Below, piece by piece: positions 17,899-34,962 of a stretch of DNA of 54,057 bases. Origin of the DNA: Vicinamibacterales bacterium (GTDB lineage Bacteria; Acidobacteriota; Vicinamibacteria; Vicinamibacterales; Fen-181); contig DASVIS010000195.1 in the NCBI GenBank assembly GCA_036381995.1, positions 1 through 54,057 on the forward strand, in the 5' to 3' direction. A program made the translations under genes and the position numbers. A model generated the notes under the pieces. That model had not been told where the DNA came from and ran no database searches. It worked only from the letters and a program-made list of their open reading frames with translations. Within the stretch, counting starts at the first letter, position 1. Each line of letters begins with the position of its first letter.

Positions 17899-17916
17899 GG
17901 TCATCCGGTTCGTTAG

Positions 17917-17927
17917 TGGTCAGACCA
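17917..17927. promoter_or_regulatory. candidate GntR/FadR-type operator (TGGTC-A-GACCA)
   Basis: Perfect 5+1+5 palindrome, flanked by further GGTC/GGTTC half-site-like repeats at roughly 17886-17935 (attGGTC..aaTGGTC..cGGTTC..gTGGTCaGACCAgttGGTTC). Located just downstream of the TTGACA element. Confidence 0.3.
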
Positions 17928-18046
17928 GTTGGTTCTTTTTCTCCGGTCCATCACGGGCATTTCTGGATGCTGCGGTCCAGCAGGAGCGCACGCCATCGAG
18001 GCCGCGAGGCCATGCGATGTGTGCGGTTCGAAGGAGAAGAGGCGCA

Positions 18047-21000
18047 ATGAAGAAGCTACTCGTTATTCTCGGCCTCGTCATATGCCTGGTGCCCGTGGCG
18101 ACGCCGGCCCGTGCCCAGGACTATCGGGCCCGGGTCCAGGGAGTGATCGTCGACAGCACCCAGGCCATTCTGCCTGGCGTCACCGTGACGCTGAAGAACG
18201 ACGCGACCGGGGTCGCCGTCGTTCGACAGACGAACGCCGAAGGGCGTTACATCTTCGACTTCGTCGAACCCGGCACCTACACGGTGACCGCGGAACTCGA
18301 TGGGTTCAAGAGGGCCGAGGAGAAAGGCATCCGCGTCCAGCAGCGCGGTGACGTCAACGCCAGGCTGGTCCTGCAGATCGGCGGTGTGTCCGAGACCGTG
18401 ATCGTCCAGGCCGAGGCCACCCAGGTCCAGCTGAACTCGAGCAACTCGCAGCTCACGCTCGAACGCCAACTGATCGACCAGGTCCCGCTGAGCGGGCGCA
18501 ACCCGTACAACCTCGCGATGCTCGACGCCACGCTGAATCCGGGCGTCGGGAGTACCGCCAACGAGAACCGGCCGTACCACCACGCGTTCGCGAACGACTA
18601 CGACGCGGGCGGCGGCACGCGGCGCGCGAACGACGTGCTGCTCGACGGCGTGCCGCTGGCGTCCAGTTACAAGACGTCGTACACGCCCTCGATGGACGCG
18701 GTCGAGGAAATCACGATCTCCAAGGCCAGCGCGGATGCCGAGAACGGCAACAGCCTGGGCGGGATTATCTCGCTCAACATGAAGTCCGGGACGAACAGCC
18801 TCAAGGGCTCGGCCTACTACTTCACGCGCGATCCCGGCCTGGACGCGATCGCCGACCCGACGTTGGTGGTCCCGTCCGGCGCGGACTTATCGAAGTTGAA
18901 GGGCACGAAACTGAAGATGGTCGGCGGCACGCTGGGCATGCCAATCAAGAAGAACAAGCTGTTCAGCTTCACGTCCGTCGAGTACTGGAACGACTACCGG
19001 CCGCTGTCGATCGTCCGGACGGTCCCGACCACCCTCGAGCGCGCCGGGGACTTCAGCCAGTCGTTCCTCAACGGCAAGTTGCGCACGATCTACGACCCCT
19101 GGACGTCGACGCTCAACTCGTCCAGCAAGGTGGTCCGCAAGGCCTTCACGGGCAACACCATCCCGTCCAACCGCATCGACCCGGTTGCCCTGAAGATCCT
19201 GCAGCAGATGCCGCAGCCGAACGTCGCGGGCAATGTCGACAACCTCCAGTACAGCGTCTACGAGCACACGAAATACTGGAACCTGTCCGAGCGCCTGGAC
19301 TGGAACATCACGGACAACTGGAAGGTCTTCGTCCGTTACGGCCAGTTCAAGGCGAACCTGTACCAGGAGAGTCCGACCCAGGGGAACTACTTCCCGCTGG
19401 CCGGCAGCAACCGCTACGGCATGAGCACGGCGGCCGACTCGGTCTGGGTCATGTCGGCCAAGTCCACCTTGAACGTGCGGGGCAGCTTCTACAACATGAC
19501 GGATGACATGTACAACCCGTCGATGCTGCTCGGCGCCGACGGCCTGTCGAATTACTGGTCGAACCCGTGGTATTCGTCGCTCTACAGCAGTGGCTACATC
19601 TACTATCCGGCGCTCGACGTCACCACCGGCACCGGCACCAACACCAACAACCGGCTGGGCCGCCAGGGGCGCGAGTGGTACCAGCACCCCAAGGCGTGGA
19701 CGCTGTCGGCCCGCATGAACCGATACGAGGGCAAGCACAGCATGAAGTGGGGGGCCGAGGTCCGCTCCAACTACGGCCAGGCCGCACGCTTCGAGCCGAT
19801 CAACCTCGTGTTCAACTCGACACTCACCGCCAACAGCTCCGACTCGCCGGACATCGTGAACTCCGGGAACCAGTGGGCCACCTTCATGCTGGGTGCCCTC
19901 GACAACCAGACCTCGGCGCGTCTCGTGCCGCTGCAGACCCCCGACTCGCGCGGCTTCGGCGCGTACATCCAGGACGACTTCCGCGTCAACGACCGCCTCA
20001 CGCTCAATATGGGCCTGCGCTGGGAGTACGAGCCGGGGGCGACCGATCCCGAGAACCGCATCTCGACCCGCTTCGACCTCACGTCCCCGATCCCGGAGAT
20101 GCAGGCGACGCCGCCGACGATGAACGCCTCGGCCCTGGCGCTCATGGCGAGCAAGGGCTACAGCTACATCTACAACGGAGCGTGGGTCTTCGCCACGTCG
20201 GACTCGCCGAACGTGTGGCACACCACGCCGTGGAACTTCCTGCCCCGCTTCGGCGCCGTCTACAACCTCGGTGGCGATCAGGTCGTGCGCTTCGCCTACG
20301 GCCGCTACCTGCGCCCGAGCAGCAGCGTCCGCGACACTCTCGGTGATTTCGTCAACCAGTACACCGGCTACGCACAGACCACGACCACGCTGGGCCTGGC
20401 CAACGGCGTGCCTCAGCAGACGCTGGCGGACCCGTACCCGGCGAACAACCCGATCATCGAACCCTACGGCCAGGCGTACGGCCGCTACACCGGCCTCGGC
20501 GGCGCGATCAGCCTCGACCAGTACGAACAGCGCCCCCAGATCAACGACCGGTTCAACCTGTCGTTCCAGCGCAAGCTCTGGCTCGGCATGATCACCGACA
20601 TCAGCTACTTCTTCAACTACGGCACACGGGTGCCCTACGACATCAACCTCAACCAGATGGACCCCGCGTTCAAGTACGAACAGAAGACCGCGATCAACGC
20701 GCAGGTCACGAACCCGTTCTATCTCTACCTGACGGCGGCCAAGTTCCCGGGGGCCCTGCGGAACAACAAGACCGTGGCGCTGTCGTCCCTCCTCCTGCCA
20801 TACCCGCAGTACGGGACGATTACGCAGACCAACACCAACGGCAAGCTGGCCATCGCGCACACGTTCGAAGCCCGGGTCCAGCGGCCCTTCACCAAGGGGC
20901 TGAGCTTCGTCGTCTCCTACGCCTACAACAACGAGAAGATCCAGCAGTGGTTCGATGACCTCGCGCAGTACAAGGTCCTGACCTCCGGCGGCAAGGATGG

Positions 21001-21541
21001 CTGGGAGTGGCGGCCCTCCGCCGATGTCCCGAGGCACCGCGTCACGGGCGCGATCACGTGGCAGATCCCGGTCGGCAAGGATCGGCGGTTCGGGGCGAGC
21101 ATGCCGAAGGTGGCCGACTGGGTCGCTGGCGGCTGGCAGTACTCTGCGGCCACCCGCTGGTACAGCGGCCGGGCGCTGCTGTTCGGCACGAGCTACATCG
21201 TCTCCGGCAACCCCAAGCTCGACAATCCGACGCGTGATCGGTGGTTCGACACATCGATGTTCTCCGTGGCGGACTCGAACACCCCGCGGTCGAATCCGTG
21301 GTACTACGATGGCCTGAACGGGCCCGGATGGACCGTGACGGACATGACGCTGACCAAGATGTTCAACCTCACGTCGAAGATCCGCCTGGAGGCGCGCATC
21401 GAGGCCTACAACGCGTTCAACTCGATCGTCTGGGACACTCCCGACCTGACGATTTCGAGCGCCAACTTCGGCAAGGTCACCCGCAAGCGCGTGGACGGCA
21501 CCGGCCGCGAGTTCCAGGTCGGTTTCCGGCTCGTGTTCTAG
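18047..21541 (+). CDS. TonB-dependent outer-membrane receptor with an N-terminal carboxypeptidase-regulatory-like domain
   Basis: Signal peptide MKKLLVILGLVICLVPVATPARAQ. CarboxypepD_reg-like segment GVIVDSTQAILPGVTVTLKNDATGV...NAEGRYIFDFVEPGTYTV. Plug-like region and a long beta-barrel ending ...FQVGFRLVF. AAGGAGAAGAGG RBS upstream of ATG 18047. Confidence 0.9.
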   Translation: MKKLLVILGLVICLVPVATPARAQDYRARVQGVIVDSTQAILPGVTVTLKNDATGVAVVRQTNAEGRYIFDFVEPGTYTVTAELDGFKRAEEKGIRVQQRGDVNARLVLQIGGVSETVIVQAEATQVQLNSSNSQLTLERQLIDQVPLSGRNPYNLAMLDATLNPGVGSTANENRPYHHAFANDYDAGGGTRRANDVLLDGVPLASSYKTSYTPSMDAVEEITISKASADAENGNSLGGIISLNMKSGTNSLKGSAYYFTRDPGLDAIADPTLVVPSGADLSKLKGTKLKMVGGTLGMPIKKNKLFSFTSVEYWNDYRPLSIVRTVPTTLERAGDFSQSFLNGKLRTIYDPWTSTLNSSSKVVRKAFTGNTIPSNRIDPVALKILQQMPQPNVAGNVDNLQYSVYEHTKYWNLSERLDWNITDNWKVFVRYGQFKANLYQESPTQGNYFPLAGSNRYGMSTAADSVWVMSAKSTLNVRGSFYNMTDDMYNPSMLLGADGLSNYWSNPWYSSLYSSGYIYYPALDVTTGTGTNTNNRLGRQGREWYQHPKAWTLSARMNRYEGKHSMKWGAEVRSNYGQAARFEPINLVFNSTLTANSSDSPDIVNSGNQWATFMLGALDNQTSARLVPLQTPDSRGFGAYIQDDFRVNDRLTLNMGLRWEYEPGATDPENRISTRFDLTSPIPEMQATPPTMNASALALMASKGYSYIYNGAWVFATSDSPNVWHTTPWNFLPRFGAVYNLGGDQVVRFAYGRYLRPSSSVRDTLGDFVNQYTGYAQTTTTLGLANGVPQQTLADPYPANNPIIEPYGQAYGRYTGLGGAISLDQYEQRPQINDRFNLSFQRKLWLGMITDISYFFNYGTRVPYDINLNQMDPAFKYEQKTAINAQVTNPFYLYLTAAKFPGALRNNKTVALSSLLLPYPQYGTITQTNTNGKLAIAHTFEARVQRPFTKGLSFVVSYAYNNEKIQQWFDDLAQYKVLTSGGKDGWEWRPSADVPRHRVTGAITWQIPVGKDRRFGASMPKVADWVAGGWQYSAATRWYSGRALLFGTSYIVSGNPKLDNPTRDRWFDTSMFSVADSNTPRSNPWYYDGLNGPGWTVTDMTLTKMFNLTSKIRLEARIEAYNAFNSIVWDTPDLTISSANFGKVTRKRVDGTGREFQVGFRLVF

Positions 21542-21556
21542 TCGCCTGTTCGAGTC

Positions 21557-21586
21557 GGCAGGAGCGAGGTTTGCCTCGCTCCTGCC
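21557..21586 (+). terminator. stem-loop terminator candidate (no clear T-tract)
   Basis: GGCAGGAGCGAGG (21557-21569), loop TTTG, CCTCGCTCCTGCC (21574-21586): a perfect 13-bp stem 16 nt after the receptor stop. Confidence 0.6.
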
Positions 21587-21795
21587 GCGCCTTCCCGGCC
21601 CCGACGCAAGGCGGAATGAATACCCGGACCGTTCTCACCCTCGCGCTCGGGGCGCTCGTCCCCGCCGTTCCCAGCACTCCTGCGATTTCCCCCGCGGCTC
21701 CTCCATCGATCTCCGTCACGCTCGGCGCCGCCAGTCGGAGGGTCTTCCCGTCCGTGGGTTGTATGGCTCGCAGGCCAGTTTCGAATGGAGTTCTG

Positions 21796-23793
21796 ATGCG
21801 TGCGCTTCTCGTGTCGATCGTGTCGTGTCTGCTCGGCGCCCTCGTCATCGCTGCCGTTCCTCCGCCTCCCCTGTCGGCATTCCCGGGCGCCGAGGGCTTC
21901 GGCGCGCTGACGCCGGGCGGCCGCGGCGGCCGGGTGATCATCGTCACGAACCTGGACGACTCGGGGCCCGGGAGTTTTCGTGACGCTGTCACCGCAAAGG
22001 GGCCGCGCATCGTTGTCTTTGGCATCGGCGGCTTGATTACCCTGGCGACCCCCGTCGTCATCGAGGAGCCGTTCGTGACGATCGCCGGCCACACGGCACC
22101 GGGCGACGGGATCTGCTTTCGCGGCCACCAGGTGAGCATCCGGACGCACGACGTCGTCGTTCGCTACCTTCGCTTTCGCCTTGGTGACGTGGCAGGGGCC
22201 GAGGAGGACAGCTTCGACATCGTCGGCGACAGTCATGACGTCATCGTCGATCACTGCTCGGCGACGTGGAGCGTGGACGAGAATCTGTCGCCGAGCGGCG
22301 GGATCAGGAACATCACCGTGCAATGGTGCCTGATCGCGGAAGCGCTCAATCGCAGCGTGCACAGCAAGGGCGCGCACGGCTACGGGTCGCTGGCGCGCGC
22401 GATTGGCGGCGTCACGTTTCACCACAACCTGTGGGCGCACAATGCCGCGCGCAATCCGCGCCTTGGTGACAACTACGCCAAGCCGCCATACCCGACGTTC
22501 GACGTGCGCAACAACGTGATCTACGACTACGGGGAGATCGCGAGCGGGATGACCGGCGATCACCTGAGCGTCAACTACGTGAACAACTACGTGCGACCGG
22601 GGCCGAGCAGTGACCGGAAGCGGGGCATCATCGTCTTCACGGACACCGCCGAGTCGGGCTACTACATCGACGGCAACGTCGTTGACGGCCGCGAGGAATG
22701 GACCGCCGACAACACGAAGATGTTCGACCGCATGGAGTTCAACGGGAAGCGGCTGGTGACGGTCGTCAAGATGCCGTTCGATGCGCCAACCGTCAGGACA
22801 ACGACCGCGCGCCGGGCTTTGCAGGATGTCCTCGTCGGCGTCGGCGCCGTGTTGCCCAGGCGCGACGCGGTCGACGCACGCATCGTCCAGTCGGTGGAGA
22901 GACGGGACGGAGCCATCATCGATTCCCAGTTGCAGGTCGGCGGCTGGCCGGGGTACCGCGCCGGGCAGGCGCCGGTCGACACGGACAAGGACGGCCTGCC
23001 GGATGCCTGGGAGAAGGCGCACGGCCTCGATCCCAAGGACCCCGGCGACGCCTCGCAGCCCGGCAGCCGCGAGGGCTACACGAACATCGAGGTCTACCTG
23101 AACGACCTGGCGGTTCGATCGCCTGCGCCAGCCGCGCCGCCGCAGATCCTGCCGCCTGGTGTCGGCACTCCGGCTGGCCCGGCGGTCGCGCGGCCGATCG
23201 TCTGGCAGATCGACAACCTGTCGAAGATTGGCGGCCGGCCCGTGAAGGCCGTGGGGACTCCCCAAGTCATCGACACGGACATCGGACCCGCCGTCGAATT
23301 CAACGGCACGACCGACGGCCTGTTCGTCGATGTCAACCCGATCGTCGGTCTGAAGCGGTTCACGGTCGAAGTGCTGTTGCAGCCGGCCACCGAGGGGCCG
23401 GAAGAGCAGCGCTTCCTGCATCTGTCCGAAGTCGGATCCGAGAACCGGCTGATGATGGAAACCCGCCTGCTGCCTGGCGCCGTCTGGAGCCTCGATACTT
23501 TCCTCAGATCGGGCGAGTCATCCCGCACGTTGCTCGATCGCGCCGTCACGCATCCCGCGGGACAGTGGTACGTGGCTTCGCTCGTCTACGACGGCCAGAC
23601 GATGGCGCACTACGTGAACGGCGTTCGCGAGCTGTCTGGCCCGGTGGAGTTCGCCGCGATGGCGGGCGGGCAGACCTCGATCGGTGTGCGGCAGAACCTG
23701 GTGTCATGGTACAAGGGCCGCGTCCGTGCGATTCGCGTCACGCCTGAGGCCCTCTCGCCCGATCGGATGATGAAGGTTCCCTCGGCGAAGTAA
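21796..23793 (+). CDS. secreted PL1-like pectate lyase with a Ca-binding (thrombospondin-type-3-like) linker and a C-terminal LamG/concanavalin-like domain
   Basis: Signal peptide MRALLVSIVSCLLGALVIAAV. Pectate-lyase pattern VIVDHCSATWSVDENLS...VTFHHNLWAHNAARNPRLG...VRNNVIYDYG. DTDKDGLPDAWEKAHGLDPKDPGD. C-terminal LamG-like segment ending ...WYKGRVRAIRVTPEAL. ATG 21796 chosen (GGAG upstream); ATG 21763 is possible. Confidence 0.8.
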   Translation: MRALLVSIVSCLLGALVIAAVPPPPLSAFPGAEGFGALTPGGRGGRVIIVTNLDDSGPGSFRDAVTAKGPRIVVFGIGGLITLATPVVIEEPFVTIAGHTAPGDGICFRGHQVSIRTHDVVVRYLRFRLGDVAGAEEDSFDIVGDSHDVIVDHCSATWSVDENLSPSGGIRNITVQWCLIAEALNRSVHSKGAHGYGSLARAIGGVTFHHNLWAHNAARNPRLGDNYAKPPYPTFDVRNNVIYDYGEIASGMTGDHLSVNYVNNYVRPGPSSDRKRGIIVFTDTAESGYYIDGNVVDGREEWTADNTKMFDRMEFNGKRLVTVVKMPFDAPTVRTTTARRALQDVLVGVGAVLPRRDAVDARIVQSVERRDGAIIDSQLQVGGWPGYRAGQAPVDTDKDGLPDAWEKAHGLDPKDPGDASQPGSREGYTNIEVYLNDLAVRSPAPAAPPQILPPGVGTPAGPAVARPIVWQIDNLSKIGGRPVKAVGTPQVIDTDIGPAVEFNGTTDGLFVDVNPIVGLKRFTVEVLLQPATEGPEEQRFLHLSEVGSENRLMMETRLLPGAVWSLDTFLRSGESSRTLLDRAVTHPAGQWYVASLVYDGQTMAHYVNGVRELSGPVEFAAMAGGQTSIGVRQNLVSWYKGRVRAIRVTPEALSPDRMMKVPSAK

Positions 23794-23825
23794 ACGGGCG
23801 TGATCTTTCCAGCGAGGTGATTCGG

Positions 23826-26800
23826 ATGACCCCGGCGACCTGGCGAGCACCCTTCCTATTCGGCTGTTCCGTCGTGGCGCTGACCCTGACGATCGTGGCC
23901 CAGGGTCAGTCGCCGAAGGAACCAGGCCTGCTGTTCTACCTGTCGGGCGACAAGGGCCTGACGGCTGACGTCTCCGCGGGTGGCACTCCCGACCCGAACT
24001 TCGCGAGCGACGTGAAAGTGATCCCGGACGGCGCGAAGGGGCCAGGGCTGCAGTGCGCCCACACGCAGTTGCTGTCCTACCGGGCCCCCGGCAACATCTA
24101 CGCCGAGCGCGGCACGCTCTCGCTGTTCTGGCGGGCCCGCGAGCCAGTCGGCCCCACCGAGTTTCCGATCTTCCGCGTCGGCTATGCCGATCACTCGAGC
24201 TGGGACATGGTGTGGCTGCGGATTGACTACAACGGCAAGCCTGGATTCGACGCGTTCGTCACCGACGCCAGCCTGGCCCGCACGCGCGTGTCGTACGCGA
24301 TGCCTGCCTTTCCCAAGCCTGACCAATGGGTCCACCTCGCCCTGTCCTGGGACGAAACGCGCGGCATCCGGTTCTATGTGAACGGCCAGATAGTGGCACG
24401 CCAGGAAGGCTCGGCGATCTTCCACGCGGCCCTCGACCAGTTCGGGCCGCACTCGCGCGTCATCAGCCCGTACCAAGTGCAGAGCGCCTACAACTTCGTG
24501 CGCGGCGGCGACATCGACGAGCTGCGCATCTACGACCGCATGTTGTCGGACGGCAACATTGCGGCGCTCTCACGCGGCGAGGTGCCGACGGCGATCCCGG
24601 AGCTGACGCGCGACCTGCAATCGTCTACCTGGCGGGACGAGTGGTGGTATCGCTACGGCTGGAATCGTCCGGGCGACGTGCCGCCGGCCCTCGACGCGGG
24701 GGCAGTGGCGATTCGCAAGGTCGAGATCCACGACGTCTACGACCTGAAGCGCTGGTGGTGGAAGGGCACCGACGGCATTCGCGAGACGACCTGGCCGGGC
24801 GTGTACAACCGATCGCGCCTGCCCGGGCGCAACGACTACTTCCAGTTGCCCGACTGGGACTGCTACTCGCTTTCGGGGAAGACAGTGACGTTCACGATGC
24901 CCGACGAGCCGTGGAACCAGGTCGAAGTGTCCGGGGCCGCATTCGGGAGTTTCTCGGTCGTGAGCCCCGATTCCGGCGCTCGCCCGCTCTTCGACCGGCC
25001 GAAGGGCCAGGAGCGGACCTTCCATCGATTACCCCTGGCGATCCGCGGCCAGCGACTGCAGTTCACCAACGTCGAGCAGGAGACGCCGATCGGTGAACTG
25101 TCGGTGTACTCCGTCCAGGCTGGCGCAGAGCCACGCGGGATCGCGCGGTTGGCCTATCGACTGACGGCTGCCGCGGAACCCGACCAGCCGAGCGTGAAGC
25201 CGCTGGTGGATTACATCAACGGCCGTTATCAGGCAGACGAGCGCCAGATCATGGTGGGCTTGCCGACGGGCGCGCCGCGAACCGCGCATGCCGCCCGGGG
25301 CGGGGGACTTCCCCTCGTTCACATCCTGATCCCCGCGGGCTTCCGCGATCTTCGATCCGGCCCGGTCAGGGCGTTCTCGTACACCTGGACCAACATGCAG
25401 GCGGGCCTCGACGGAATCGCCATCGACCTGCCGGCGCTGAAGGTGACGCCCACCCACGGCGCGTACTTCCCGTTGAACATCCAGGTGAAGGACCCCATCT
25501 GGCCCCTGAGAAACATGCTGGACGTCAGCATCTCCGTGAAGCCGGGCGAGGCGCATACGGTCTGGCTCGACACGCGCGACCGCATTCTACCCAATGGAAA
25601 GCCGCTCTACCTGACGATTGCCGGAGCCGGCGCAGACTTCGGCCCCGCGGCACTCGAGGGCGCCGAGGTCCGACTGATCTTCAAGCCGCTCGAACAGGCC
25701 AGGGCCGAGCACGTCCTCGATCGCTTCACCCAGGTCCGCGACAACTACGCGCAGATCGTCGAGGAGCATCCGAACACTCGCCGGCTGAACCTCTACACGC
25801 AGTTCGAGACCGACATGACGGATCTCCTGCGCGTCGATCCGAATCACACGCTCGGGCGTCAGTATTGGTACGACTACAACAAGGAGCAGCCGCGGCCGCC
25901 GGTCACGCTCGCCGCCGCGCCCGATGGCGTCCCGCTCTGGGCGTTTCGGCAGATCGAGCTGCTCCGGTACGTGAAGCGCTTCGTCAACTGGTACATCGAC
26001 AATCGTCAGATCGAGAATGGCGAGCTTGGCGGCGGCCTGTCAGACGACGGCGACCTGACCAACTGGTGGCCGGGCACGGCGCTGATGGGCGCCAACCCCG
26101 AGAAGATCCGGCGCTCGCTGTTGAAGGAGATGGACGCGTTCTACGCCGAAGGCATGTTCACCAACGGCCTCTCCACGATCCAGGCCGACGAGCTGCACAG
26201 CTACGAGGAAGGCATCCAGGTCCTCGGGCAGTCGCTCACCCTCGACTACGGCAGCCCGCTCCAGATCGAGCGCGCGATGCAGACGGCGCTAGCGACCGAG
26301 CGAATCACCGGCATCAACCGCGCCGGTCACCGCCACATCCGATCGTCCTATTTCAGCGGCACGAAGATCGCCGAGGACAGCGTGTGGGGCTGGTCGAAAC
26401 CGTCGTCTTACCTGGTGATGCACCCGGCGATGCTGCTCGTCGAGTTCAACGGCGCGCCGAAGATACGCAAGTGGCTGCTGGAACTGGCGGACGGCCTGCT
26501 GGCGCACGCGAAAACCGACGCCGCCGGCAATGTCGCGCTGCCAACGACGATACACTTTGCCAGCGACGAGGCGCTGGTCACCGGACCGTCCACCGGCGGA
26601 GGGATCGATCGGACGACGCCGCTGCTGTGGGCTGCGTATCGATGGACTGGCGACCGGAAGTATCTGAAGCCGTATCTCGCTGCCGGGCCGCGCAGCCTGT
26701 CGGGGATCGGCGCCAACGCCCTGGATCTGATGGGCATGCGGGCCGAATGGGGGCCGCAGATTCTGAAGGGGATGACGCCGGAGAACACCGGGGGCCGAAC

Positions 26801-27650
26801 CGCCGGCGGGTCGCGGCATTTCGCCTGGCAGGTAGGCGGCGACACCAGGCTGCTCGAGCGTCTCTACACGGAGCAGGCCGAGAATGCGCGGTTGCGCGAG
26901 TACATCAACACGGACGGCAGCCTGTGGATCGACCGCGTGACCGTCGAGCACGGCGACCTGCAGCGGGCACGGCTCGGCGGTGTGGCGCTCGAGCGCAACT
27001 CGATCTACCCAGGCCACGTGGTGAGCTGGGACTTCGCCCAGCCGGACGCCGACGAGCGAGTGGCCATCCTGGTGCGCGAAGCGACCCCGCAGCACGTTCG
27101 CCTCGTCGCCTACAATCTCGACACGCGGCCGGTCGTCGCTCGAATGACCGGGTGGGACATCGACCCCGGATCCTGGGAGATCAGCCAGGGCACGGGACCC
27201 GAGACCGGCGACTCGTTTTCCGGAGACCCGGCGGTGCGCACCATCGCGCTCGAACGGACGGCCGGCACCAACGTCATCTTCCCTCCGCGCGCGACCACCG
27301 TGATCGATCTCGCGCTCGTGACGAAGGGCGTGCCGTACTGGTCGCGCTTCGATCTCGGCATCTCCGAGGCCGACGTGCGCGTCGAGGGCCGGACGATGAA
27401 GGTGACGGTGCACAGTGTGGGGGCCGCGGACGCACCGGCGTCGAAGCTCGTGCTCCGCGGCCGGGACGGGCGCGTCATTGCCAGCGCCGCCGCGCCCGCC
27501 CTGAAGGCGCCCCTCGATCTCGTGCCGAAGACCGCGACGGTCTCGCTGCCGCTGCCCGCAGGAGCCGACTGGAAAGGCGGCAGCGTCACGATCGAGACGG
27601 GTGCTCGAGGCCCCGAGATCACGAGGCGGAACAACGTGGTGCGGTTCTAG
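23826..27650 (+). CDS. large secreted protein of unknown function: N-terminal LamG-like domain plus an about 1000-aa uncharacterised region (possible novel carbohydrate-active enzyme)
   Basis: Signal-like N-terminus (FLFGCSVVALTLTIVAQG). LamG hallmarks (TLSLFWRA..., WVHLALSWDETRGIRFYVNG, GDIDELRIYDRMLS). I recognise no family for the remainder. ATG 23826 preferred (GAGGTG 6 nt upstream) over GTG 23817. Confidence 0.7.
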   Translation: MTPATWRAPFLFGCSVVALTLTIVAQGQSPKEPGLLFYLSGDKGLTADVSAGGTPDPNFASDVKVIPDGAKGPGLQCAHTQLLSYRAPGNIYAERGTLSLFWRAREPVGPTEFPIFRVGYADHSSWDMVWLRIDYNGKPGFDAFVTDASLARTRVSYAMPAFPKPDQWVHLALSWDETRGIRFYVNGQIVARQEGSAIFHAALDQFGPHSRVISPYQVQSAYNFVRGGDIDELRIYDRMLSDGNIAALSRGEVPTAIPELTRDLQSSTWRDEWWYRYGWNRPGDVPPALDAGAVAIRKVEIHDVYDLKRWWWKGTDGIRETTWPGVYNRSRLPGRNDYFQLPDWDCYSLSGKTVTFTMPDEPWNQVEVSGAAFGSFSVVSPDSGARPLFDRPKGQERTFHRLPLAIRGQRLQFTNVEQETPIGELSVYSVQAGAEPRGIARLAYRLTAAAEPDQPSVKPLVDYINGRYQADERQIMVGLPTGAPRTAHAARGGGLPLVHILIPAGFRDLRSGPVRAFSYTWTNMQAGLDGIAIDLPALKVTPTHGAYFPLNIQVKDPIWPLRNMLDVSISVKPGEAHTVWLDTRDRILPNGKPLYLTIAGAGADFGPAALEGAEVRLIFKPLEQARAEHVLDRFTQVRDNYAQIVEEHPNTRRLNLYTQFETDMTDLLRVDPNHTLGRQYWYDYNKEQPRPPVTLAAAPDGVPLWAFRQIELLRYVKRFVNWYIDNRQIENGELGGGLSDDGDLTNWWPGTALMGANPEKIRRSLLKEMDAFYAEGMFTNGLSTIQADELHSYEEGIQVLGQSLTLDYGSPLQIERAMQTALATERITGINRAGHRHIRSSYFSGTKIAEDSVWGWSKPSSYLVMHPAMLLVEFNGAPKIRKWLLELADGLLAHAKTDAAGNVALPTTIHFASDEALVTGPSTGGGIDRTTPLLWAAYRWTGDRKYLKPYLAAGPRSLSGIGANALDLMGMRAEWGPQILKGMTPENTGGRTAGGSRHFAWQVGGDTRLLERLYTEQAENARLREYINTDGSLWIDRVTVEHGDLQRARLGGVALERNSIYPGHVVSWDFAQPDADERVAILVREATPQHVRLVAYNLDTRPVVARMTGWDIDPGSWEISQGTGPETGDSFSGDPAVRTIALERTAGTNVIFPPRATTVIDLALVTKGVPYWSRFDLGISEADVRVEGRTMKVTVHSVGAADAPASKLVLRGRDGRVIASAAAPALKAPLDLVPKTATVSLPLPAGADWKGGSVTIETGARGPEITRRNNVVRF

Positions 27651-27686
27651 TCCTGCGACTCACCTGGGTTGGCGAAGGAGCGAGCG

Positions 27687-28040
27687 ATGAAGAAGACCGA
27701 ATCACCGCGTTTTCAGCACGCGGCGTGGACTGACGTGCCTGCCGGGTCGCCCATGGCTGGCGCCGAGCGACGGATGATGGTAGGCGACAACCTGATGATC
27801 TGCCGGCTGCGGTTCGACCCGAACGTCGTGACGCCGGTCCACACGCATCCGCACGAGCAGATGACCCTCATCGAGCGAGGACGGGCCAGGTTCTTCATCG
27901 GGCCGGAAACCCGCCTTGTCGGCCCGGGCGATGTCCTGCACTTTCCATCGAACGTCGAACATGGAGCGACGATGCTCGACGAGGAAGTCGTGCTCATGGA
28001 CATCTTCACGCCGGTCCGGGAGGATTTCCTGAAGAAGTAG
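27687..28040 (+). CDS. small cupin, KdgF-like
   Basis: Cupin motifs HTHPHEQMTLIERG...GDVLHFPSNVEHG and a C-terminal DIFTPVREDFL, which I associate with KdgF-type cupins of uronate/pectin loci. GAAGGAG RBS 5 nt before ATG 27687. Confidence 0.75.
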   Translation: MKKTESPRFQHAAWTDVPAGSPMAGAERRMMVGDNLMICRLRFDPNVVTPVHTHPHEQMTLIERGRARFFIGPETRLVGPGDVLHFPSNVEHGATMLDEEVVLMDIFTPVREDFLKK

Positions 28041-28062
28041 GGCCGGGCCTCAGCCCCGCCCT

Positions 28063-29685
28063 TCACGGCAGCGCGCGGTATCTGAAATTCCGAAATCTCA
28101 CCTCGCCCGTTCCCGCCGCGTACAGCGCCGGGCGCAGGCTGAGGAAGTCGTACGCCACATTGTGGTGGTAGCCCGAAACTTCCATCTGCGTGCCGAACTT
28201 CTGCCAGGCCTTCCCGTTGGCGCTGGTGTGAATCGTCACGATGTGGCGGTCGTTTCGCAGGCGCAGGAATACGTGGCGGCCAAGCGGCTTCGGCTTGGCG
28301 CTGACCCGCTCGGTGCCGTAGCGATGCATCACGAGGCTCGTGTCGGAGTACCCGAGGCCCGCGTAGAGCCGGCTGTTGTAGAACAGAATCAGGCCGGCCG
28401 TGGCACCCGGGTCGATGTCGATTTCGACCTCGACCTCGTACGCGTGATCGCCGCACACGAACCACAGCGGCGAGCTGTCGGCGGGCGTCGTCCCCCTGGC
28501 CCGCAGCACGAGGCTGCCGTTCTCGTACCGATACCGATCGCGGTCGGTATCGGTGCCCTTGTAGAAGCTCCACTGCACGCCCATCTTGTTGCTGGCGAAG
28601 TTGTCGGAGAAGGCGAATCCGTGCGTCACTGCCGGGCCGGCCGGCTTGGCGATCGGCGCCGCCACGTCGGCGCCCGCGGCCTTGAACCATCCGTCGGACG
28701 TCCACTCGACCGGTTCGAGAAGCGTCTGCCGCCCGAGATTGTAGAACCCGTTCTCGTACGCATGGTAGATCGCGTACCACCTGCCGCCAGGCCCCTCGAC
28801 CAGCGTCGCATGCCCTCTGGACCACCAGCGCTCGTCAGCGGATTTCGTCCGGATAATCGGGTTGTACGGCGAGTTCTCCCACGGGCCTTCGATTGATTTC
28901 GACCGCGCGGCCACCACCATGTGGCTCGTCGGCGGGCCGGCGGTGCCGCCTTCGGCGAGGACCATGTAGAAGTAGCCGCCGTGCTTCATCATCTTCGGGC
29001 CTTCCTGCGCGAAGCCCTCGACTACCCACTCCTCCGGGTACTTCCAGCCGTCGTAGACCTTCTTGAGCGGGCTCGTCACGGACAGCCCGTCATCCGACAA
29101 GGTGACCATGTAGCCGCCGCTGAGGAACAGGTATCGCTTGCCGTCGGGCCCGACGACGTGGCCCGGATCGATCCGGCCGATCTCGAGGTCGATCGGATCG
29201 CTCCATGGGCCCCTGATGCTGTCAGCCCAGATTACATAGTTCGACGACGGCCCGGCCTCGGTCCGCTTCTGCCCGGGGAAGTAGATGTAGTAGCGCCCCT
29301 TGTGCTTCACGAGGTCGGGCGCCCACACCGAGCCGACGTTCCTGAAGAGCGTCGGACCCACAGGTTCCCAGTTGACGAGGTCACGCGAGTGCCAGATGAC
29401 CAGGCCGGGATAGGCGTCGAACGACGAGAACGTGAGGTAGTAGTCGTCGCCATCCTTGAGGACCGACGGGTCCGGGTGATCGCCCGGCATGATGGGGTTC
29501 AGATAGAAGCCGTTGCCGAGATCCGCTTTGCGCTGCCCCTCGGTGCCCGCGGCCCAGGTGGCGATCGAGCGATCCCGGGGTGCCTGCGCAGAGAGCGTCA
29601 CGAACGAGCCCGCGGCGGTGAGCGCGGCCAGCGAGAGGAGCACGACCATGGTCCGCGCCGAGGCTGATGTGTGCACAGAGGTCAT
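28063..29685 (-). CDS. GH43 family glycoside hydrolase (beta-xylosidase/alpha-L-arabinofuranosidase type) with a C-terminal concanavalin-like domain
   Basis: NPIMPGDHPDPSVLKDGDDYYLTFSSFDAYPGLVIWHSRDLVNWEPVG...VWAPDLVKHKGRYYIYFP...EGPKMMKHGGYFYM. ATG 29685 with an AAGGAGA RBS; the track start at 29715 is a TTG. Confidence 0.9.
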   Translation of the reverse strand: MTSVHTSASARTMVVLLSLAALTAAGSFVTLSAQAPRDRSIATWAAGTEGQRKADLGNGFYLNPIMPGDHPDPSVLKDGDDYYLTFSSFDAYPGLVIWHSRDLVNWEPVGPTLFRNVGSVWAPDLVKHKGRYYIYFPGQKRTEAGPSSNYVIWADSIRGPWSDPIDLEIGRIDPGHVVGPDGKRYLFLSGGYMVTLSDDGLSVTSPLKKVYDGWKYPEEWVVEGFAQEGPKMMKHGGYFYMVLAEGGTAGPPTSHMVVAARSKSIEGPWENSPYNPIIRTKSADERWWSRGHATLVEGPGGRWYAIYHAYENGFYNLGRQTLLEPVEWTSDGWFKAAGADVAAPIAKPAGPAVTHGFAFSDNFASNKMGVQWSFYKGTDTDRDRYRYENGSLVLRARGTTPADSSPLWFVCGDHAYEVEVEIDIDPGATAGLILFYNSRLYAGLGYSDTSLVMHRYGTERVSAKPKPLGRHVFLRLRNDRHIVTIHTSANGKAWQKFGTQMEVSGYHHNVAYDFLSLRPALYAAGTGEVRFRNFRYRALP

Positions 29686-29839
29686 GCCACATTTCTCCTT
29701 AGATACTGGTATCAAGCCTCGAATAGACAGTACCGGTGTTGCACGAGGTCACGCCGGCGGCTGTGGAGTGACCAGAATATATCACGCGCATAAGTGATGG
29801 GCTTGGCGGTCGAGTCTCGGCCATCCGGAGGAATCACCC

Positions 29840-30818
29840 ATGTCCACGTCCAGAATCGGCGGCATCCTGACAACGGCATTGGTTGTGGTCGCTTTCTCGG
29901 GCACCCCCGGACAGCGGACGCTGGCGGTCGGGTTCCAGGCGCCCGCGCCGGCGGCGGCCTCGAAGACCGCAGCGCCCGCGCAGGCGGCATCGCCGGCACG
30001 CGAGGAGTGGGACGATCCTGCCGTGCTGCGCGTCGGCGCCGAGCGAACGCACGCGACGATGATGACGTATCCGTCGGCGGACCTGGCCACCCGCGGCGAT
30101 CGCGCGGCGTCGTCCTGGTTCCGCTCGCTGAACAACGGGACGTGGAAGTTCCGCTACTCGCCAAACCCGGCGAGCCGGCCGACAGGCTTCGAGCGGCCCG
30201 ACTTCGACGACACGGGCTGGCCGACCATAAGAGTGCCGGCCAACTGGGAAGTGCAGGGCTTCGGGATCCCGATCTACAGCAACTCGGACTATCCGTTCTC
30301 CTTCGACCCGGCCAACCCCCGGGTGCCTCGCGACGACAACCCGGTAGGCTCCTACCGCACATCGTTCACCGTCCCGGCCGAATGGGCCGGCCGCCGGGTA
30401 TTGCTGCACTTCGCCGGTGTTGATTCCGCTTTCTACCTCTGGATCAACGGCAAGCGCGTCGGCTACAGCGAGGACAGCCGGACGCCGGCCGAGTTCGACG
30501 TCACGAGTTTCGTCTCGGCGGGGCCGAACACGATGGCTGTGGAAGTCTATCGCTGGAGCGACGGCTGGTTCCTCGAGGACCAGGACATGTTCCGGCTGAG
30601 CGGCATCTATCGCGACGTCTATTTCTGGAGCCGTGCGCCGTCGCATATCCGGGACTTCGAGACGCGCACGAATCTCGATGCCGCGTACCGCGATTCTCGA
30701 CCGCGGACCGGTGCCTGAATTCTGGCGCCCGATGACCGACAACGACCTCGGTGCATGGAAGTCCGTCGGGAACCGCGCTCGCTACTCGTTCCGCCTGCGT
30801 CCGATTGAAGGGCGGTAG
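29840..30818 (+). pseudogene. GH2 (LacZ-like beta-galactosidase) remnant. The signal peptide and N-terminal sugar-binding domain are retained; the catalytic core is deleted and the 3' end is lost
   Basis: Residues up to ...FWSRAPSHIRDFETRTNLDAAYRD are collinear with GH2 domain 1 and the start of domain 2 (WPTIRVPANWEVQGFG, NPVGSYRTSF, FAGVDSAFYLWINGKRVGYSEDSRTPAEFDVT, WSDGWFLEDQDMFRLSGIYRDV). At about 30690 the reading frame changes and the next recognisable peptide is ILDRGPVPEFWRPMTDNDLG, the FWRxxTDND motif of the C-terminal Bgal_small_N domain. A stop follows at 30818. Confidence 0.75.
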
Positions 30819-30874
30819 CCGGATCGAAGCGCCAGGGTCAGCCAACACGCAGGACGTCGAACGGAAGACGGAGC

Positions 30875-32071
30875 ATGCGACCCGGTCGGATGCCCGGCCA
30901 GATCGGGCATACTGGTTGGATGCCACCTCCCGAGACCCTTCGGTTCTATCCGGCCGCCCGCGTCGTCGCACCGCGGATTCACGAATATTTCGCCGTTCAC
31001 CTCGAGGCGGCCCGGCAGCGGGGCGCAGCGCCCGAGGCCTGTCTGGCGGATATCGACGCCATCGAGGCGATCATCGACGCCGCATTCTGGGCGAGCCTCC
31101 GCCGTGAGGAGAACTACATTCCGAAGATCTCGCTGGCGTTCCTCCCTCCCGGCCACTCGGCGCAGACCCTGAAGTTCGAGCACTCGCTCTCGCTCAGTGT
31201 GACCGCACTGACCCGGGTGTCGCCAGCCGTGGAGCGCGCCGGCGTCCACCTCGGCGTCTGGCGCATGGGGGACGAGCTGCGGGTGTGGGGAGCGACCTGC
31301 TCGATCCCGGCGCTTTGTTTCGTGCTGGAAGTGGTCGCGCCAGGCCTCCTCGTGGCCAAGCACCATCGCGGCGACGAAACGGGGAAGTTCGTCAACGTGG
31401 CCGTTCTCGAGGGCGACCAGGTCAAGGTCGTCGACGAGGGGGCCAGGAGTCTGCCCGACTGTCCGGCCCTGCTGGCGTCGCTCCTCGGCTTCGATTCTCC
31501 GAGCTCCTGGGTCGAGTCGCTCAACGTCTTGGTACAGCTCGCCGTGTCGATGCGGGCACACGGCCGCGGCGGTCTCCTGCTGGTCGTCCCGTCCGGAAGC
31601 GACGGGTGGCGGGACTCGATCGTGCGCCCGATGGGCTATGGTCTCGACCCGCCATTCGTGCGGCTCTCCGACTTGATGCGAGACTACACGGGTGAGCGCG
31701 AGGAGGGGCATTGGCGCGACGCGCTCGACCGGGCCGTGGACGCCGTCGCGGGGCTGACCGCCGTCGACGGAGCGGCCATCATGACGGACCGCTACGAATT
31801 GCTGGCATTCGGCGCGAAGATTATGCGGCGCAAGGGTGGACAGCAGGTCGAGCGTGTGGCCGTGACCGAGCCGATCGAGGGCAGCGTGGCGGCGGTCGTC
31901 CCCCCCACGGAACTCGGTGGCACGCGTCACCTCTCGGCCGCGCAGTTCATCCAGGACCAGCGGGACGGCCTGGCTCTGGTCGCGTCGCAGGACGGACGGT
32001 TCACGGTCTTCGCCTGGTCGCCGTGTGACGCCATGGTTCACGCCCACCGTGTGGACACCCTGCTGCTGTAA
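30875..32071 (+). CDS. stand-alone diadenylate-cyclase (DAC/DisA_N)-like protein with an uncharacterised soluble N-terminal domain
   Basis: The C-terminal about 170 aa carry the ordered DAC motifs GGLLLVVP (cf. GALIVI), VDGAAIM (DGA motif), GGTRHLSAAQF (RHR motif, here RHL) and ALVASQDGRFTVF (cf. VVSEETGxIS). No TM segment or HhH domain. The start is uncertain (ATG 30875, 30890 or 30920). Confidence 0.75.
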   Translation: MRPGRMPGQIGHTGWMPPPETLRFYPAARVVAPRIHEYFAVHLEAARQRGAAPEACLADIDAIEAIIDAAFWASLRREENYIPKISLAFLPPGHSAQTLKFEHSLSLSVTALTRVSPAVERAGVHLGVWRMGDELRVWGATCSIPALCFVLEVVAPGLLVAKHHRGDETGKFVNVAVLEGDQVKVVDEGARSLPDCPALLASLLGFDSPSSWVESLNVLVQLAVSMRAHGRGGLLLVVPSGSDGWRDSIVRPMGYGLDPPFVRLSDLMRDYTGEREEGHWRDALDRAVDAVAGLTAVDGAAIMTDRYELLAFGAKIMRRKGGQQVERVAVTEPIEGSVAAVVPPTELGGTRHLSAAQFIQDQRDGLALVASQDGRFTVFAWSPCDAMVHAHRVDTLLL

Positions 32072-32125: not shown

Positions 32126-32932
32126 GTGACCAAGATCGTTTCCGCCGCCTGCTTCGTCCTCGTCGTACTCCTCGCTGGAAGCGCCTGTTCGCGCCAGCCA
32201 GCCCCGTCGTCCACCGCCGCACCGGCCACGTCTGCGCCCGCGGCGGCCACGCCCGGGAATCCGGGCGCCATCCCGGTTGTCATGCCCGGAACAGGAGGCC
32301 AGCAGGCCCTCGAGACCGTGACCGGCGAGGTGGTCGAGACGATGGACGCGTCGACCTACACCTATGTCCGGGTGAAGACCGCGAAGGGTGATGTCTGGGC
32401 GGCGACCGGGAAGACAGAGGTGGCGGTTGGCGACAAGGTGGTGGTCCCGCTCGAGTCCGAGATGCGGAACTTCCACAGCCCATCGCTGAACCGCGACTTC
32501 CCGGTCATCTACTTCGTGTCACAAATCACGCGCGAGGGCGAGCCCACGCCGCCGCCGATGGCCCTCGGGCACGGGATGGGGAGCGGGTCCGCGTCCCCGC
32601 AGGCGCCGGTGAAGGTCGACCCCATCGCGCCGCCCGCCGGAGGGTCGAGCATCGCCGACGTGTGGGCGAACCGCGCGTCCCTCGCAGGCAAGTCCGTGAC
32701 GGTGAGCGGCAAGGTGGTGAAGTTCAACGGGGGCATTCTGGGCCGCAACTGGCTGCATGTGCAGGACGGCAGCGGCAAGGCTGCGGACGGCACCAACGAC
32801 CTGACCGTCACCACCGATGCGATGACGAAGGTCGGCGACGTCATCACCGCCACCGGCACGGTCGTCGTGAACAAGGACTTCGGCGCCGGCTACGCGTACA
32901 AGGTGATGCTGGAGGGGGCAAAGATCAGGTAA
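32126..32932 (+). CDS. probable lipoprotein with two beta-rich (OB-fold-like) modules
   Basis: GTG start with an AGGGGGG RBS. MTKIVSAACFVLVVLLAGSAC signal/lipobox-like, then a Pro/Ala/Ser linker. Module 1 is ETVTGEVVETMDASTYTYVRVKTAKGDVWAA... Module 2 is SLAGKSVTVSGKVVKFNGGILGRNWLHVQDGSG... Confidence 0.7.
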   Translation: MTKIVSAACFVLVVLLAGSACSRQPAPSSTAAPATSAPAAATPGNPGAIPVVMPGTGGQQALETVTGEVVETMDASTYTYVRVKTAKGDVWAATGKTEVAVGDKVVVPLESEMRNFHSPSLNRDFPVIYFVSQITREGEPTPPPMALGHGMGSGSASPQAPVKVDPIAPPAGGSSIADVWANRASLAGKSVTVSGKVVKFNGGILGRNWLHVQDGSGKAADGTNDLTVTTDAMTKVGDVITATGTVVVNKDFGAGYAYKVMLEGAKIR

Positions 32933-32988
32933 GGCACGCAGGAAAGCTGCGCAGGTCGAGCAGGGCGATCCGATACAATCAGGGCTCG

Positions 32989-34962
32989 ATGCTGGATCAC
33001 AACGACACAGTGCGGTGGGCCGACGGCGGCCGGGTGGAACTGGACCTCGACGCGGGGCTCTCCCGGCTCGGCTACCAGCAGTTTCGCCCTGGCCAGCGCG
33101 AGGCCATTGAAACGCTGCTCGCGGACGGGCGCCTGCTGCTCGTCGCCCCCACCGGCGGCGGCAAGAGCCTGATCTATCAGCTTCCCGCCACGCTCCTGCC
33201 TGGCACGACCATCGTCGTCTCCCCGCTCATCGCGCTCATGCAGGACCAGGCGCGCGCGCTCGAGGAGCGGGGCGTCGCGGCCACGTTCCTGTCGTCCACC
33301 CTCGAATCGGGTGAGATGCGGCGCCGGATGGCGCGCGCAGCGGCTGGGGACTTCAAGCTGCTCTACGTGGCGCCAGAGCGCCTCACGTACCCCGGCTTCA
33401 AGGGACTGCTGGCCGACCTCGAGATTCCGCTGGTCGCGGTGGACGAGGCGCATTGCATCAGCCAGTGGGGGCATGATTTTCGTCCAGAGTATCTGCAGAT
33501 TGGCGACCTCCTGGCCGATGTGCGGCCGCCCCGGATGCTGGCCTGCACCGCGACCGCCACGCCGGTCGTGCGCGACGAGATCGTCGCACGCCTGGGCCTC
33601 GGCGCCGACACGCCGCAGATCGTGCGAGGCTTTGCCCGCCCCAATCTCATCCTCCGTGCCGTTGAAATCCAGGGTCCACGCGAACGGGCCCGCCATGTCG
33701 ACGCGCAGTTGCTCGAGTCACTCGGCCGGCCCGGCCAGGCTCGCGGTGTGGCTATCGTCTACTCGATGACTCGCGCGGGCGCCGAGCATGAGGCTGACCG
33801 ATTGGCCGCGCGGGGATGGCGGACGACCGCGTATCACGCGGGCCTCGACCGCGATGTGCGCGCGCGCGCCCAGGGGGCGTTCAGCAACGGCAGCGTTGAC
33901 GTCGTCGCCGCGACGGTCGCCTTCGGGATGGGCATCGACCGCGCGGATGTCCGCGCCGTGATTCATCTCTCGCCGCCGGGGTCGATCGAGGCTTACTACC
34001 AGGAGGTCGGCCGCGCAGGACGCGACGGCGAGCCGGCGTGGGGGCTGCTGCTGGTCTCGCCGGGCGACATGGCGCTGCGCCGGCGGCTGCTGGAGAACGC
34101 CGAAGGCACGACCGCCGAGACGCTGGAGCACAAGTGGAACCTGTTCCTCGAGTTGCTTCGCTGGGCGGAGGGCGGAAGCTGCCGCCACGACGCCATCCTG
34201 CGGTACTTCGGTGACGAGGCGGAAACTCTGGCCGGCTGCGGAACGTGCGACGTGTGCGAAGCGCTCGAGGACGCCAGTCGCGACCAGGACTCTGAAGCGG
34301 TGGCGTTGACCGTCCGGAAGGCGTTGAGTGGCGTGGCGCGCGTCCACGGCCGGTTCGGCATGACGGCGGCGGTCCAGCTCCTGAGGGGCGTCGCCGACGA
34401 ACGTCTCGTGCGGTCAGGTCTCGAGCAGACGACGACATTCGGCGTGCTGCGTGAGCACAGCGAGGAGTGGCTGCTGCGGCTGCTGCGCCGCCTCGTCACC
34501 GCCGGCTGGATCGAGTTCTCGACGGGCGATCGGCCCGTCGTGCGCCTGACCGAACCGGGCCGCGCCGTGATGAAGGGGGAACACCCCGCCAGAGTCCTGC
34601 TGCCGCCACTGGGCCGGCCGTCGGCGGGCGGGGCACACCGCCCGCGGCGACGCCTGGATGCCGGTACTGACGCCGCAGGACGTGGGGCAGTGCCATCGTC
34701 TGTGGCCCGCGCGTACACGGTCGAAGCCGAAGAGGAGGATCTGTTCGAGGCGCTGCGCCGCCACCGTTTGGAAGTATCGCGTGCGCTCGGCGCTCCGCCT
34801 TACGTCGTTGCCAGCGACCGCACCCTGCGCGAGCTGGCGACGTTCAGGCCGCGAACGCTTCGCGAGCTCGAAGCCATCTACGGCATCGGTCCGTCGAAGC
34901 TCGAGCGTTTTGGCCAGGGGTTCCTCGATGCCCTGCGGGCGTCGCGGTCGTCAACGGGGTAG
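32989..34962 (+). CDS. recQ: ATP-dependent DNA helicase RecQ
   Basis: FRPGQREAIE, APTGGGKSLIYQLPA, VAVDEAHCISQWGHDFRPEY (DEAH), Zn-binding CRHDAILRYFGDE...CGTCDVC, and a C-terminal HRDC (LFEALRRHRLEVSRALGAPPYVVASDRTLRELA). ATG 32989; the upstream extension in the track is unsupported. Confidence 0.93.
   Translation: MLDHNDTVRWADGGRVELDLDAGLSRLGYQQFRPGQREAIETLLADGRLLLVAPTGGGKSLIYQLPATLLPGTTIVVSPLIALMQDQARALEERGVAATFLSSTLESGEMRRRMARAAAGDFKLLYVAPERLTYPGFKGLLADLEIPLVAVDEAHCISQWGHDFRPEYLQIGDLLADVRPPRMLACTATATPVVRDEIVARLGLGADTPQIVRGFARPNLILRAVEIQGPRERARHVDAQLLESLGRPGQARGVAIVYSMTRAGAEHEADRLAARGWRTTAYHAGLDRDVRARAQGAFSNGSVDVVAATVAFGMGIDRADVRAVIHLSPPGSIEAYYQEVGRAGRDGEPAWGLLLVSPGDMALRRRLLENAEGTTAETLEHKWNLFLELLRWAEGGSCRHDAILRYFGDEAETLAGCGTCDVCEALEDASRDQDSEAVALTVRKALSGVARVHGRFGMTAAVQLLRGVADERLVRSGLEQTTTFGVLREHSEEWLLRLLRRLVTAGWIEFSTGDRPVVRLTEPGRAVMKGEHPARVLLPPLGRPSAGGAHRPRRRLDAGTDAAGRGAVPSSVARAYTVEAEEEDLFEALRRHRLEVSRALGAPPYVVASDRTLRELATFRPRTLRELEAIYGIGPSKLERFGQGFLDALRASRSSTG

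Follow-up and report, generated by a model that had tools for sequence, protein, structure and literature searches.

The 54,057-nucleotide stretch of DNA analyzed here (the window; contig DASVIS010000195.1 of a Vicinamibacterales bacterium) contains an open reading frame (ORF) at 30875..32071 on the plus strand, and this locus raises the question of whether the encoded protein is a diadenylate cyclase (DAC) and, if so, whether it synthesizes cyclic di-AMP (c-di-AMP). An initial annotation of the locus had quoted four motifs of a divergent diadenylate-cyclase-like protein, and all four (GGLLLVVP, VDGAAIM, GGTRHLSAA and LALVASQDGRFTVF) are indeed present in the translation in the order claimed. 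Our analysis suggests that the protein is an active c-di-AMP synthase that functions as a one-component sensor-cyclase, a reading to which we assign a probability of roughly 60%. The gene itself is an ordinary member of a known, uncharacterized family that is common in soil Acidobacteriota.

A member of the DACNV family

Comparison of the window protein with Pfam and with metagenomic proteins places it, with near certainty, in the DACNV family. The protein scores 90.8 bits with PF21751 ("Probable sensor domain DACNV"), far above the gathering cut-off of 27 (E 6.5e-26), and the match spans positions 3-97 of the 98-position model. The N-terminal half, which had been described as carrying no recognizable motif, therefore contains a curated domain, and its earlier description as a soluble, sensor-type module holds. 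Among 5.8 billion proteins searched, at least 8000 are significant homologues, the top one at 99% identity, and an exhaustive search yielded 1919 representatives of 50%-identity clusters at E<=1e-3. All of the 120 homologues listed have PF21751 as their sole Pfam domain, and they are about 380 residues long. The three family alignments (A1-A3) cover the whole protein and remain colinear down to 30% identity. What the DACNV proteins share with the window protein extends from length and full-length colinearity to the motifs FWASLRREE, VWG, DGA, GGTRH[L/Q]SAAQF and VASQDG; the window protein is typical of the family, in that many metagenomic proteins are 66-99% identical to it and nothing substantive sets it apart.

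DACs have been split into 22 families with newly defined N-terminal domains, according to papers that cite the original survey (Galperin 2023, J Bacteriol 205:e0002323). The proposal that the window protein represents a fourth, sensor-fused architecture does not stand as a new one, because its N-terminal domain is already curated in Pfam and the sequence sources already name its homologues "sensor domain DACNV-containing protein". DACNV is probably one of the N-terminal DAC-associated domains of the 2023 survey. No fusion of DACNV to another output domain was seen among the family representatives; those of odd length carry DACNV alone and resemble miscalled genes from metagenomes.

The family is overwhelmingly found in Acidobacteriota (Vicinamibacterales, Pyrinomonadaceae, Blastocatellia and Bryobacterales), with scattered relatives in Bacteroidota, Gemmatimonadota and one betaproteobacterial metagenome-assembled genome (MAG). 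Relatives are encoded in at least 568 species genomes of a GTDB-based collection, and the window itself most resembles Acidobacteriota MAGs.

The ORF is clearly a genuine and intact gene, because the GC content at its third codon positions (GC3) is 0.85, it has thousands of homologues and its ratio of nonsynonymous to synonymous substitution rates (dN/dS) is low. The gene is under purifying selection, with dN/dS values of 0.05, 0.14 and 0.18 against three orthologues. One might suspect a chance ORF, given a GC-rich genome (67% GC in the window) with many long spurious ORFs, or a decaying pseudogene, given that the adjoining glycoside hydrolase family 2 (GH2) gene is itself a remnant. Such a nonfunctional ORF is refuted by the full length of the frame and its colinearity with thousands of homologues, by the dN/dS and GC3 values and by the confident structure model described below. 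A 421-residue antisense ORF (30782-32047, minus strand) spans the gene; antisense shadow ORFs of this kind recur at 68 of 79 homologous loci and are artefacts of high GC, not genes.

The most likely start codon, judged from the relatives, is the ATG at 30920 (M16 of the long ORF) and not the ATG at 30875, because almost all homologues are 379-385 residues long, the 99% identical relative is called from the equivalent of 30920, and two relatives (L081 and L082) have no other in-frame ATG than this one. The 15-codon extension occurs only in the window and in its 98% identical relative L083. Residue numbers throughout refer to the 383-residue protein that begins at ATG 30920, and the features of the locus are collected in Table 1.

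Table 1. Positions of the DACNV gene, its domains and motifs, and adjacent elements in the window.
Feature	Position	Strand	Basis
DACNV-DAC protein coding sequence (383 residues plus stop)	30920..32071	+	ORF, homologue lengths, dN/dS, GC3
15 additional in-frame codons upstream, with ATGs at 30875 and 30890, probably untranslated	30875..30919	+	starts of relatives
N-terminal module, residues 1-172, modeled as a pair of long helices and then a beta-rich domain	30920..31435	+	PF21751, AlphaFold2 model
Pfam DACNV match	31034-31297	+	PF21751
Inter-domain linker, residues 173-200, partly low confidence	31436..31519	+	AlphaFold2 model
Predicted divergent DAC-fold domain, residues 201-383	31520..32068	+	Foldseek, PF02457 matches of relatives
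DGA motif (D283 G284 A285)	31766..31774	+	invariant in family
RHL (R336 H337 L338) at the canonical RHR position	31925..31933	+	hhalign against CdaA
SQDG (S356-G359), aligned to CdaA SEETG	31985..31996	+	hhalign
GH2 beta-galactosidase remnant, neighboring gene	29840..30818	+	only GH2_N domain detected
Inverted repeat ATGCCCG-N7-CGGGCAT, judged incidental	30890..30910	+	fold z-score, arm conservation
-10-like hexamer CATACT, 6 nt before ATG 30920	30908..30913	+	conservation, TANNNT enrichment

Within the N-terminal module the predicted local distance difference test (pLDDT) score of the AlphaFold2 model is mostly 85-98, and the motifs FW(A/T)S..EE and VWG are invariant or nearly so in the family alignments. 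A hydrophobic stretch of 19 residues (127-145; Kyte-Doolittle 2.1) is modeled as a beta-hairpin and not as a transmembrane helix. The module had no significant fold match in the PDB, none falling below E 0.5, in what was a weak test, run with a first model that was good at the N-terminus and poor at the C-terminus; a structure search of BFVD likewise found nothing. The linker that follows drops below a pLDDT of 50 at residues 193-200.

Fold of the C-terminal domain

The C-terminal domain very probably has a DAC fold in a very divergent sequence, because all ten distant relatives scanned give a sub-threshold DAC match, the structure model is confident, and every listed structural match is a DAC. 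The ten relatives are full-length proteins at 30-35% identity, each of which carries DACNV and, at the equivalent C-terminal position, a match to PF02457 with E values from 3.6e-5 to 0.27; the best score among them, 23.8 bits, lies below the cut-off of 27. The final AlphaFold2 model was built from an alignment of 40 sequences, relatives at 30-50% identity among them, and reached a pLDDT of 90.3 and a predicted template modeling score of 0.86. It replaced a first model from 29 close homologues in which the C-terminal domain was poor (pLDDT <50). When the final model was compared with the PDB by Foldseek, all 50 hits listed were DAC domains at a probability of 1.00, with E values from 1e-4 to 5e-3; they comprise CdaA from five species, CdaM, DisA from Thermotoga and M. 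tuberculosis, and CdaS (2fb5). The comparison with AlphaFold that had been proposed as a check thus supports the predicted diadenylate cyclase fold.

The fold similarity is convincing, and the sequence-level evidence is consistent with it but weak. A hidden Markov model derived from CdaA matched nothing in the window or in the homologous loci, and NCBIfam gave no match for the window protein. The only PDB sequences retrieved by HMMER, a dehydrogenase and haemagglutinin, are chance matches. Alignment by hhalign with the single B. subtilis CdaA and with a 26-sequence CdaA profile extended over about 30 columns at E 0.03-0.05, which is useful for the register of the motifs and is not proof of homology. 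The alpha/beta fold and the DGA motif of DACs are thus found, whereas a PF02457 match at the gathering score and a full RHR motif are not, and for this reason we file the protein as a DACNV-family member that is DAC-like by fold, not as a proven diadenylate cyclase.

Active-site motifs

DGA and RHR are the ligand-binding and catalytic motifs of DACs (PMC8573169, PMC3328451, PMC13022847). The window protein reads VDGA at residues 282-285, and DGA is invariant in alignments A1-A3 and present in 120 of 120 close homologues. In the hhalign register, GTRHLSAA..VASQ-DG of the window protein pairs with GTRHRAA..VSEETG of CdaA. The R of RH is invariant, and the H invariant or nearly so, across 30-100% identity. 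The residue that follows is L in 117 and F in 3 of the 120 close homologues; among the 50%-identity representatives with an in-register G(G/N)xRH[x]SAAQF (n=47) it is L in 29, Q in 11, F in 3, I in 2, M in 1 and K in 1, and never R. The change from RHR to RHL that had been singled out in the window protein is accordingly not particular to it and represents a family-wide trait. In the 26 CdaA sequences (alignment A4), by comparison, the second arginine of RHR is invariant. Further downstream, S356 never varies, and Q357, D358 and G359 are each conserved to 90% or more. This pattern is the one expected of a working active site and not of a decaying one, a reading of the alignments that we base on the conservation of DGA, RH and S..DG over a wide range of identity together with the low dN/dS.

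Proposed catalytic activity and its alternatives

From these data we infer catalysis and its product, as well as a sensory role of the N-terminal module and the signal it would read. The protein would be a cytosolic one-component signaling enzyme in which the DACNV module of about 170 residues controls the C-terminal divergent DAC domain. This module presumably binds an intracellular ligand or partner and would regulate the head-to-head pairing of, or the access to, the DAC domains. If the enzyme works as DisA and CdaA do, a pair of DAC domains would come together head-to-head and join two ATP molecules to form c-di-AMP. The family-wide loss of the second RHR arginine is assumed to be tolerated or compensated; compensation by the nearly invariant K300 in FGAK would be one speculative example.

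A number of observations weigh against an active c-di-AMP synthase. Nowhere in the family does arginine occupy the third RHR position, and the SEETG motif is shortened to SQDG. M. tuberculosis DisA and M. bovis CdaM lose both ATP binding and activity when RHR is replaced by AAA (PMC3328451, PMC13022847); the literature searched offered no single-residue data for the second arginine. A search against PF02457 (DAC/DisA_N), which the initial annotation had put forward as a check, returned no match for the window protein even at E<=10. HMMER searches of the PDB found no DAC, either by phmmer with the window protein and with its distant relative P0228 or by hmmsearch with the profiles of A1 and A3. 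The Foldseek template modeling scores are moderate (0.5-0.6, normalized on the target) with a large root-mean-square deviation, and the hhalign match to the CdaA profile covers 30 columns at E 0.03 with a probability below 2%. An Rfam scan of the window returned no families and no c-di-AMP riboswitch, and no canonical c-di-AMP gene was recognized among the window genes scanned. Finally, no paper mentioning DACNV in this sense turned up in the literature searched, and the family appears to be experimentally untouched.

Several of the same features would suit an active cyclase with an altered product or substrate, that is, one that makes another cyclic dinucleotide or linear pApA, or that prefers ADP or another nucleoside triphosphate. 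Throughout the family another residue stands in place of the RHR arginine that is highly conserved in canonical DACs, the acidic SEETG motif has become shorter, and the domain has diverged enough to fall below the Pfam DAC model; the strong conservation of the other motifs argues for some form of catalysis. We nevertheless consider an altered product unlikely, as nothing positive indicates another product and the D of DGA, the R and the H are all retained. A pseudo-enzyme or receptor, in which nucleotide binding by the DAC-like domain, perhaps of c-di-AMP or ATP, would go without synthesis and the protein would act as a sensor or adaptor, would agree with the incomplete RHR, with the loss of ATP binding and activity in the RHR-to-AAA variants of DisA and CdaM, and with the lack of a PF02457 match. 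Yet down to 30% identity the DGA aspartate never varies, and the R, H and S..D vary little or not at all. A receptor would also need an output domain or a conserved partner to act through, and the protein has neither. This alternative appears about as improbable as the preceding one. The active c-di-AMP synthase thus remains the reading that we favor.

Comparison with characterized diadenylate cyclases

The window protein differs from CdaA, DisA and CdaS, as the initial annotation had recognized. CdaA (DacA) supplies the best Foldseek matches (6huw, 8ogk and 6hvl), its catalytic domain has the DAC fold, and its DGA, GTRH and S..G motifs align with those of the window protein. CdaA, however, is anchored in the membrane by three N-terminal transmembrane helices that the window protein lacks, the corresponding region of the latter being modeled as a soluble alpha/beta domain. 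CdaA also carries RHR and SEETG where the window protein has RHL and SQDG, with an identity of only about 12-17% and no PF02457 match for the latter. The cdaA gene lies in a cdaA-cdaR-glmM context, whereas the neighbors of the window gene are the GH2 remnant, a lipoprotein-like gene and recQ. DisA shares the DAC fold (3c1y, 9y9y and 4yxm) but has its DAC domain at the N-terminus, followed by a helical spine and a helix-hairpin-helix (HhH) DNA-binding domain, in contrast to the C-terminal DAC domain of the window protein; neither HhH nor any other Pfam domain besides DACNV was detected in the window protein. The order of an N-terminal regulatory module and a C-terminal DAC domain is shared with CdaS, CdaM and DacZ (CdaZ), of which CdaS (2fb5) and CdaM (8ofj and 7dg0) are among the Foldseek matches. 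The N-terminal modules themselves differ: two autoinhibitory helices in CdaS, one transmembrane helix in CdaM, a PK_C-like module in DacZ and DACNV in the window protein.

Genomic context

The DACNV gene stands alone in an ordinary chromosomal context. The initial annotation had placed it at a rearrangement scar and regarded it as accessory or acquired. The GH2 remnant upstream is real, and of its domains only GH2_N survives. Relative to the 97-98% identical metagenome contig L083, the GH2 gene has suffered clean internal deletions of 1636 bp (30693/30694) and 660 bp (30782/30783), the junctions of which show microhomology of only 1-3 nt; the gene is intact in L081 (1085 residues). From 30783 on, the window is colinear with L083 at 98.4% through the 3' end of GH2, the intergenic region and the entire DACNV gene. 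Relatives at 77-81% identity have the order intact GH2, one gene, DACNV, lipoprotein-like gene, one gene, recQ and pirin. The gene between GH2 and DACNV is present in L001 and L081, and the third relative has a different upstream gene; the gene before recQ is a WYL/HTH regulator in L081 and L082 and Peptidase_M28-like in the third relative. The deletions are confined to the GH2 gene, and the DACNV gene, lying in conserved synteny, is by these comparisons ancestral and not an insertion, because it is colinear with L083 and its gene order is shared with the 77-81% relatives.

To characterize the wider neighborhood, all ORFs were clustered across 79 species-level genome loci. No conserved partner gene was found, no neighbor family occurring in more than 15 of the 79 loci. 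The top cluster, with 15 loci, is a single-linkage merge of recQ (8) with DEAD-box RNA helicases (7). recQ lies within 8 kb of the DACNV gene in 8 of the 79 loci, all of which resemble Vicinamibacterales; neither the recQ nor the DEAD-box association is general. We considered the recQ linkage as a clue to a DisA-like role in DNA damage and rejected it as lineage-restricted synteny. The DEAD-box helicase, of about 430 residues, is found in L012, L015, L021, L045, L048, L057 and L065 (at about 6650-7990) and ends some 10-50 nt before DACNV on the same strand; the helicase ORF of L015 is shorter and ends about 600 nt upstream of the DACNV gene.

These surveys also bear on the suggestion that the protein generates the signal of an anti-phage or other conflict system, with its effector nearby or elsewhere. 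Papers citing other work report that some dac genes lie near clusters of cyclic-oligonucleotide-based anti-phage signaling systems (CBASS), and in one distant relative of the family, P0228 on contig L085, the DACNV-DAC gene overlaps a gene for a trypsin-like peptidase by 4 nt. Against this, the 79 loci share no conserved neighboring effector, as the counts for recQ and the DEAD-box helicase illustrate, PADLOC gave 0 matches, and 2.9 million viral contigs of IMG/VR held one terminal fragment only. The stable synteny, the housekeeping-type context and the strong purifying selection likewise speak against it. A conflict system is therefore very unlikely, more so than either of the alternatives weighed above, and an accessory, acquired or conflict role finds no support in this clade.

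P0228 deserves separate mention. It is 31% identical to the window protein, and its gene and the overlapping downstream gene, which encodes a 453-residue Trypsin_2 peptidase, occupy 234-2764 of L085; the other distant relatives examined have no such overlap. The two genes may form an operon, and they might represent a separate branch within the family that is linked to an effector.

Region upstream of the gene

The initial annotation had also drawn attention to a hairpin overlapping one candidate start codon. The 7-bp inverted repeat (30890-30896/30904-30910) does exist, but it is no better than chance and lies upstream of the probable start at 30920. The RNA fold z-score of the region is -1.09, 16 comparable inverted repeats occur within 1.8 kb, and relatives conserve only the 3' half of the repeat and not its 5' arm; on these grounds the hairpin was rejected as a regulatory element.

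A second element of this region is the -10-like hexamer CATACT. It is kept in L081, L082 and L001, and other relatives have TATACT or TACAAT. A TANNNT sequence precedes the start by 5-7 nt in 15 of 79 loci, an enrichment when set against about 0.7 per offset elsewhere. From sequence comparison we infer that CATACT is a candidate promoter for a leaderless or very-short-leader mRNA. A similar hexamer, TACAAT, lies at about 32971-32976, some 9 nt before the recQ ATG, and the position of such hexamers close to start codons suggests leaderless or very-short-leader mRNAs in these Acidobacteriota.

Neighboring genes

Downstream of the DACNV gene the window encodes a 268-residue protein (32126-32932) whose N-terminus is lipoprotein-like and which has no Pfam match. 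A gene of this type follows DACNV in the window, in L001, L081 and L082 and on the P0010 contig, and sequence similarity to it turned up only in the closest clade. The WYL/HTH (DeoR-type) gene of L081 and L082 (8062-9078 in L081) lies between the lipoprotein-like gene and recQ and is missing from the window at 32932-32966, a third deletion within about 5 kb of this genome; L001, too, is longer here, by about 1.2 kb. The long recQ ORF (32662-34962) overlaps the preceding lipoprotein-like gene, and its true start is probably the ATG near 32986 (MLDHNDTVRW...), because homology to the relatives begins near 32967-33040.

On the other side, a polysaccharide-utilization-type cluster (17897-29715) encodes a large protein with CarboxypepD_reg and an outer-membrane beta-barrel, two Laminin_G_3 proteins, a cupin and a GH43 xylosidase-like protein, and it ends at the degraded GH2 gene. 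The remaining window is ordinary chromosome as well, with genes for methylmalonyl-CoA mutase and MeaB, a MATE pump and an ABC-F protein, and, besides the outer-membrane barrel and glycoside-hydrolase cluster, a phosphoribosyl pyrophosphate synthetase and an S41 peptidase.

Significance of the family

For the window gene itself these results change little, as it is representative of a family already modeled in Pfam and named by annotation pipelines. The interest lies with the family, which is abundant in soil Acidobacteriota and deviates consistently from an RHR motif that the literature holds to be essential. There is a small chance that the whole DACNV clade, with its remodeled DAC site, could make a signal other than c-di-AMP or use another catalytic arrangement. 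If so, the family would constitute a new second-messenger branch, abundant in soil Acidobacteriota and driven by an intracellular signal that DACNV reads. Demonstration of the family product, be it c-di-AMP or another molecule, would extend c-di-AMP-type signaling into a major and poorly studied soil phylum, and would also test how indispensable the second arginine of RHR is.

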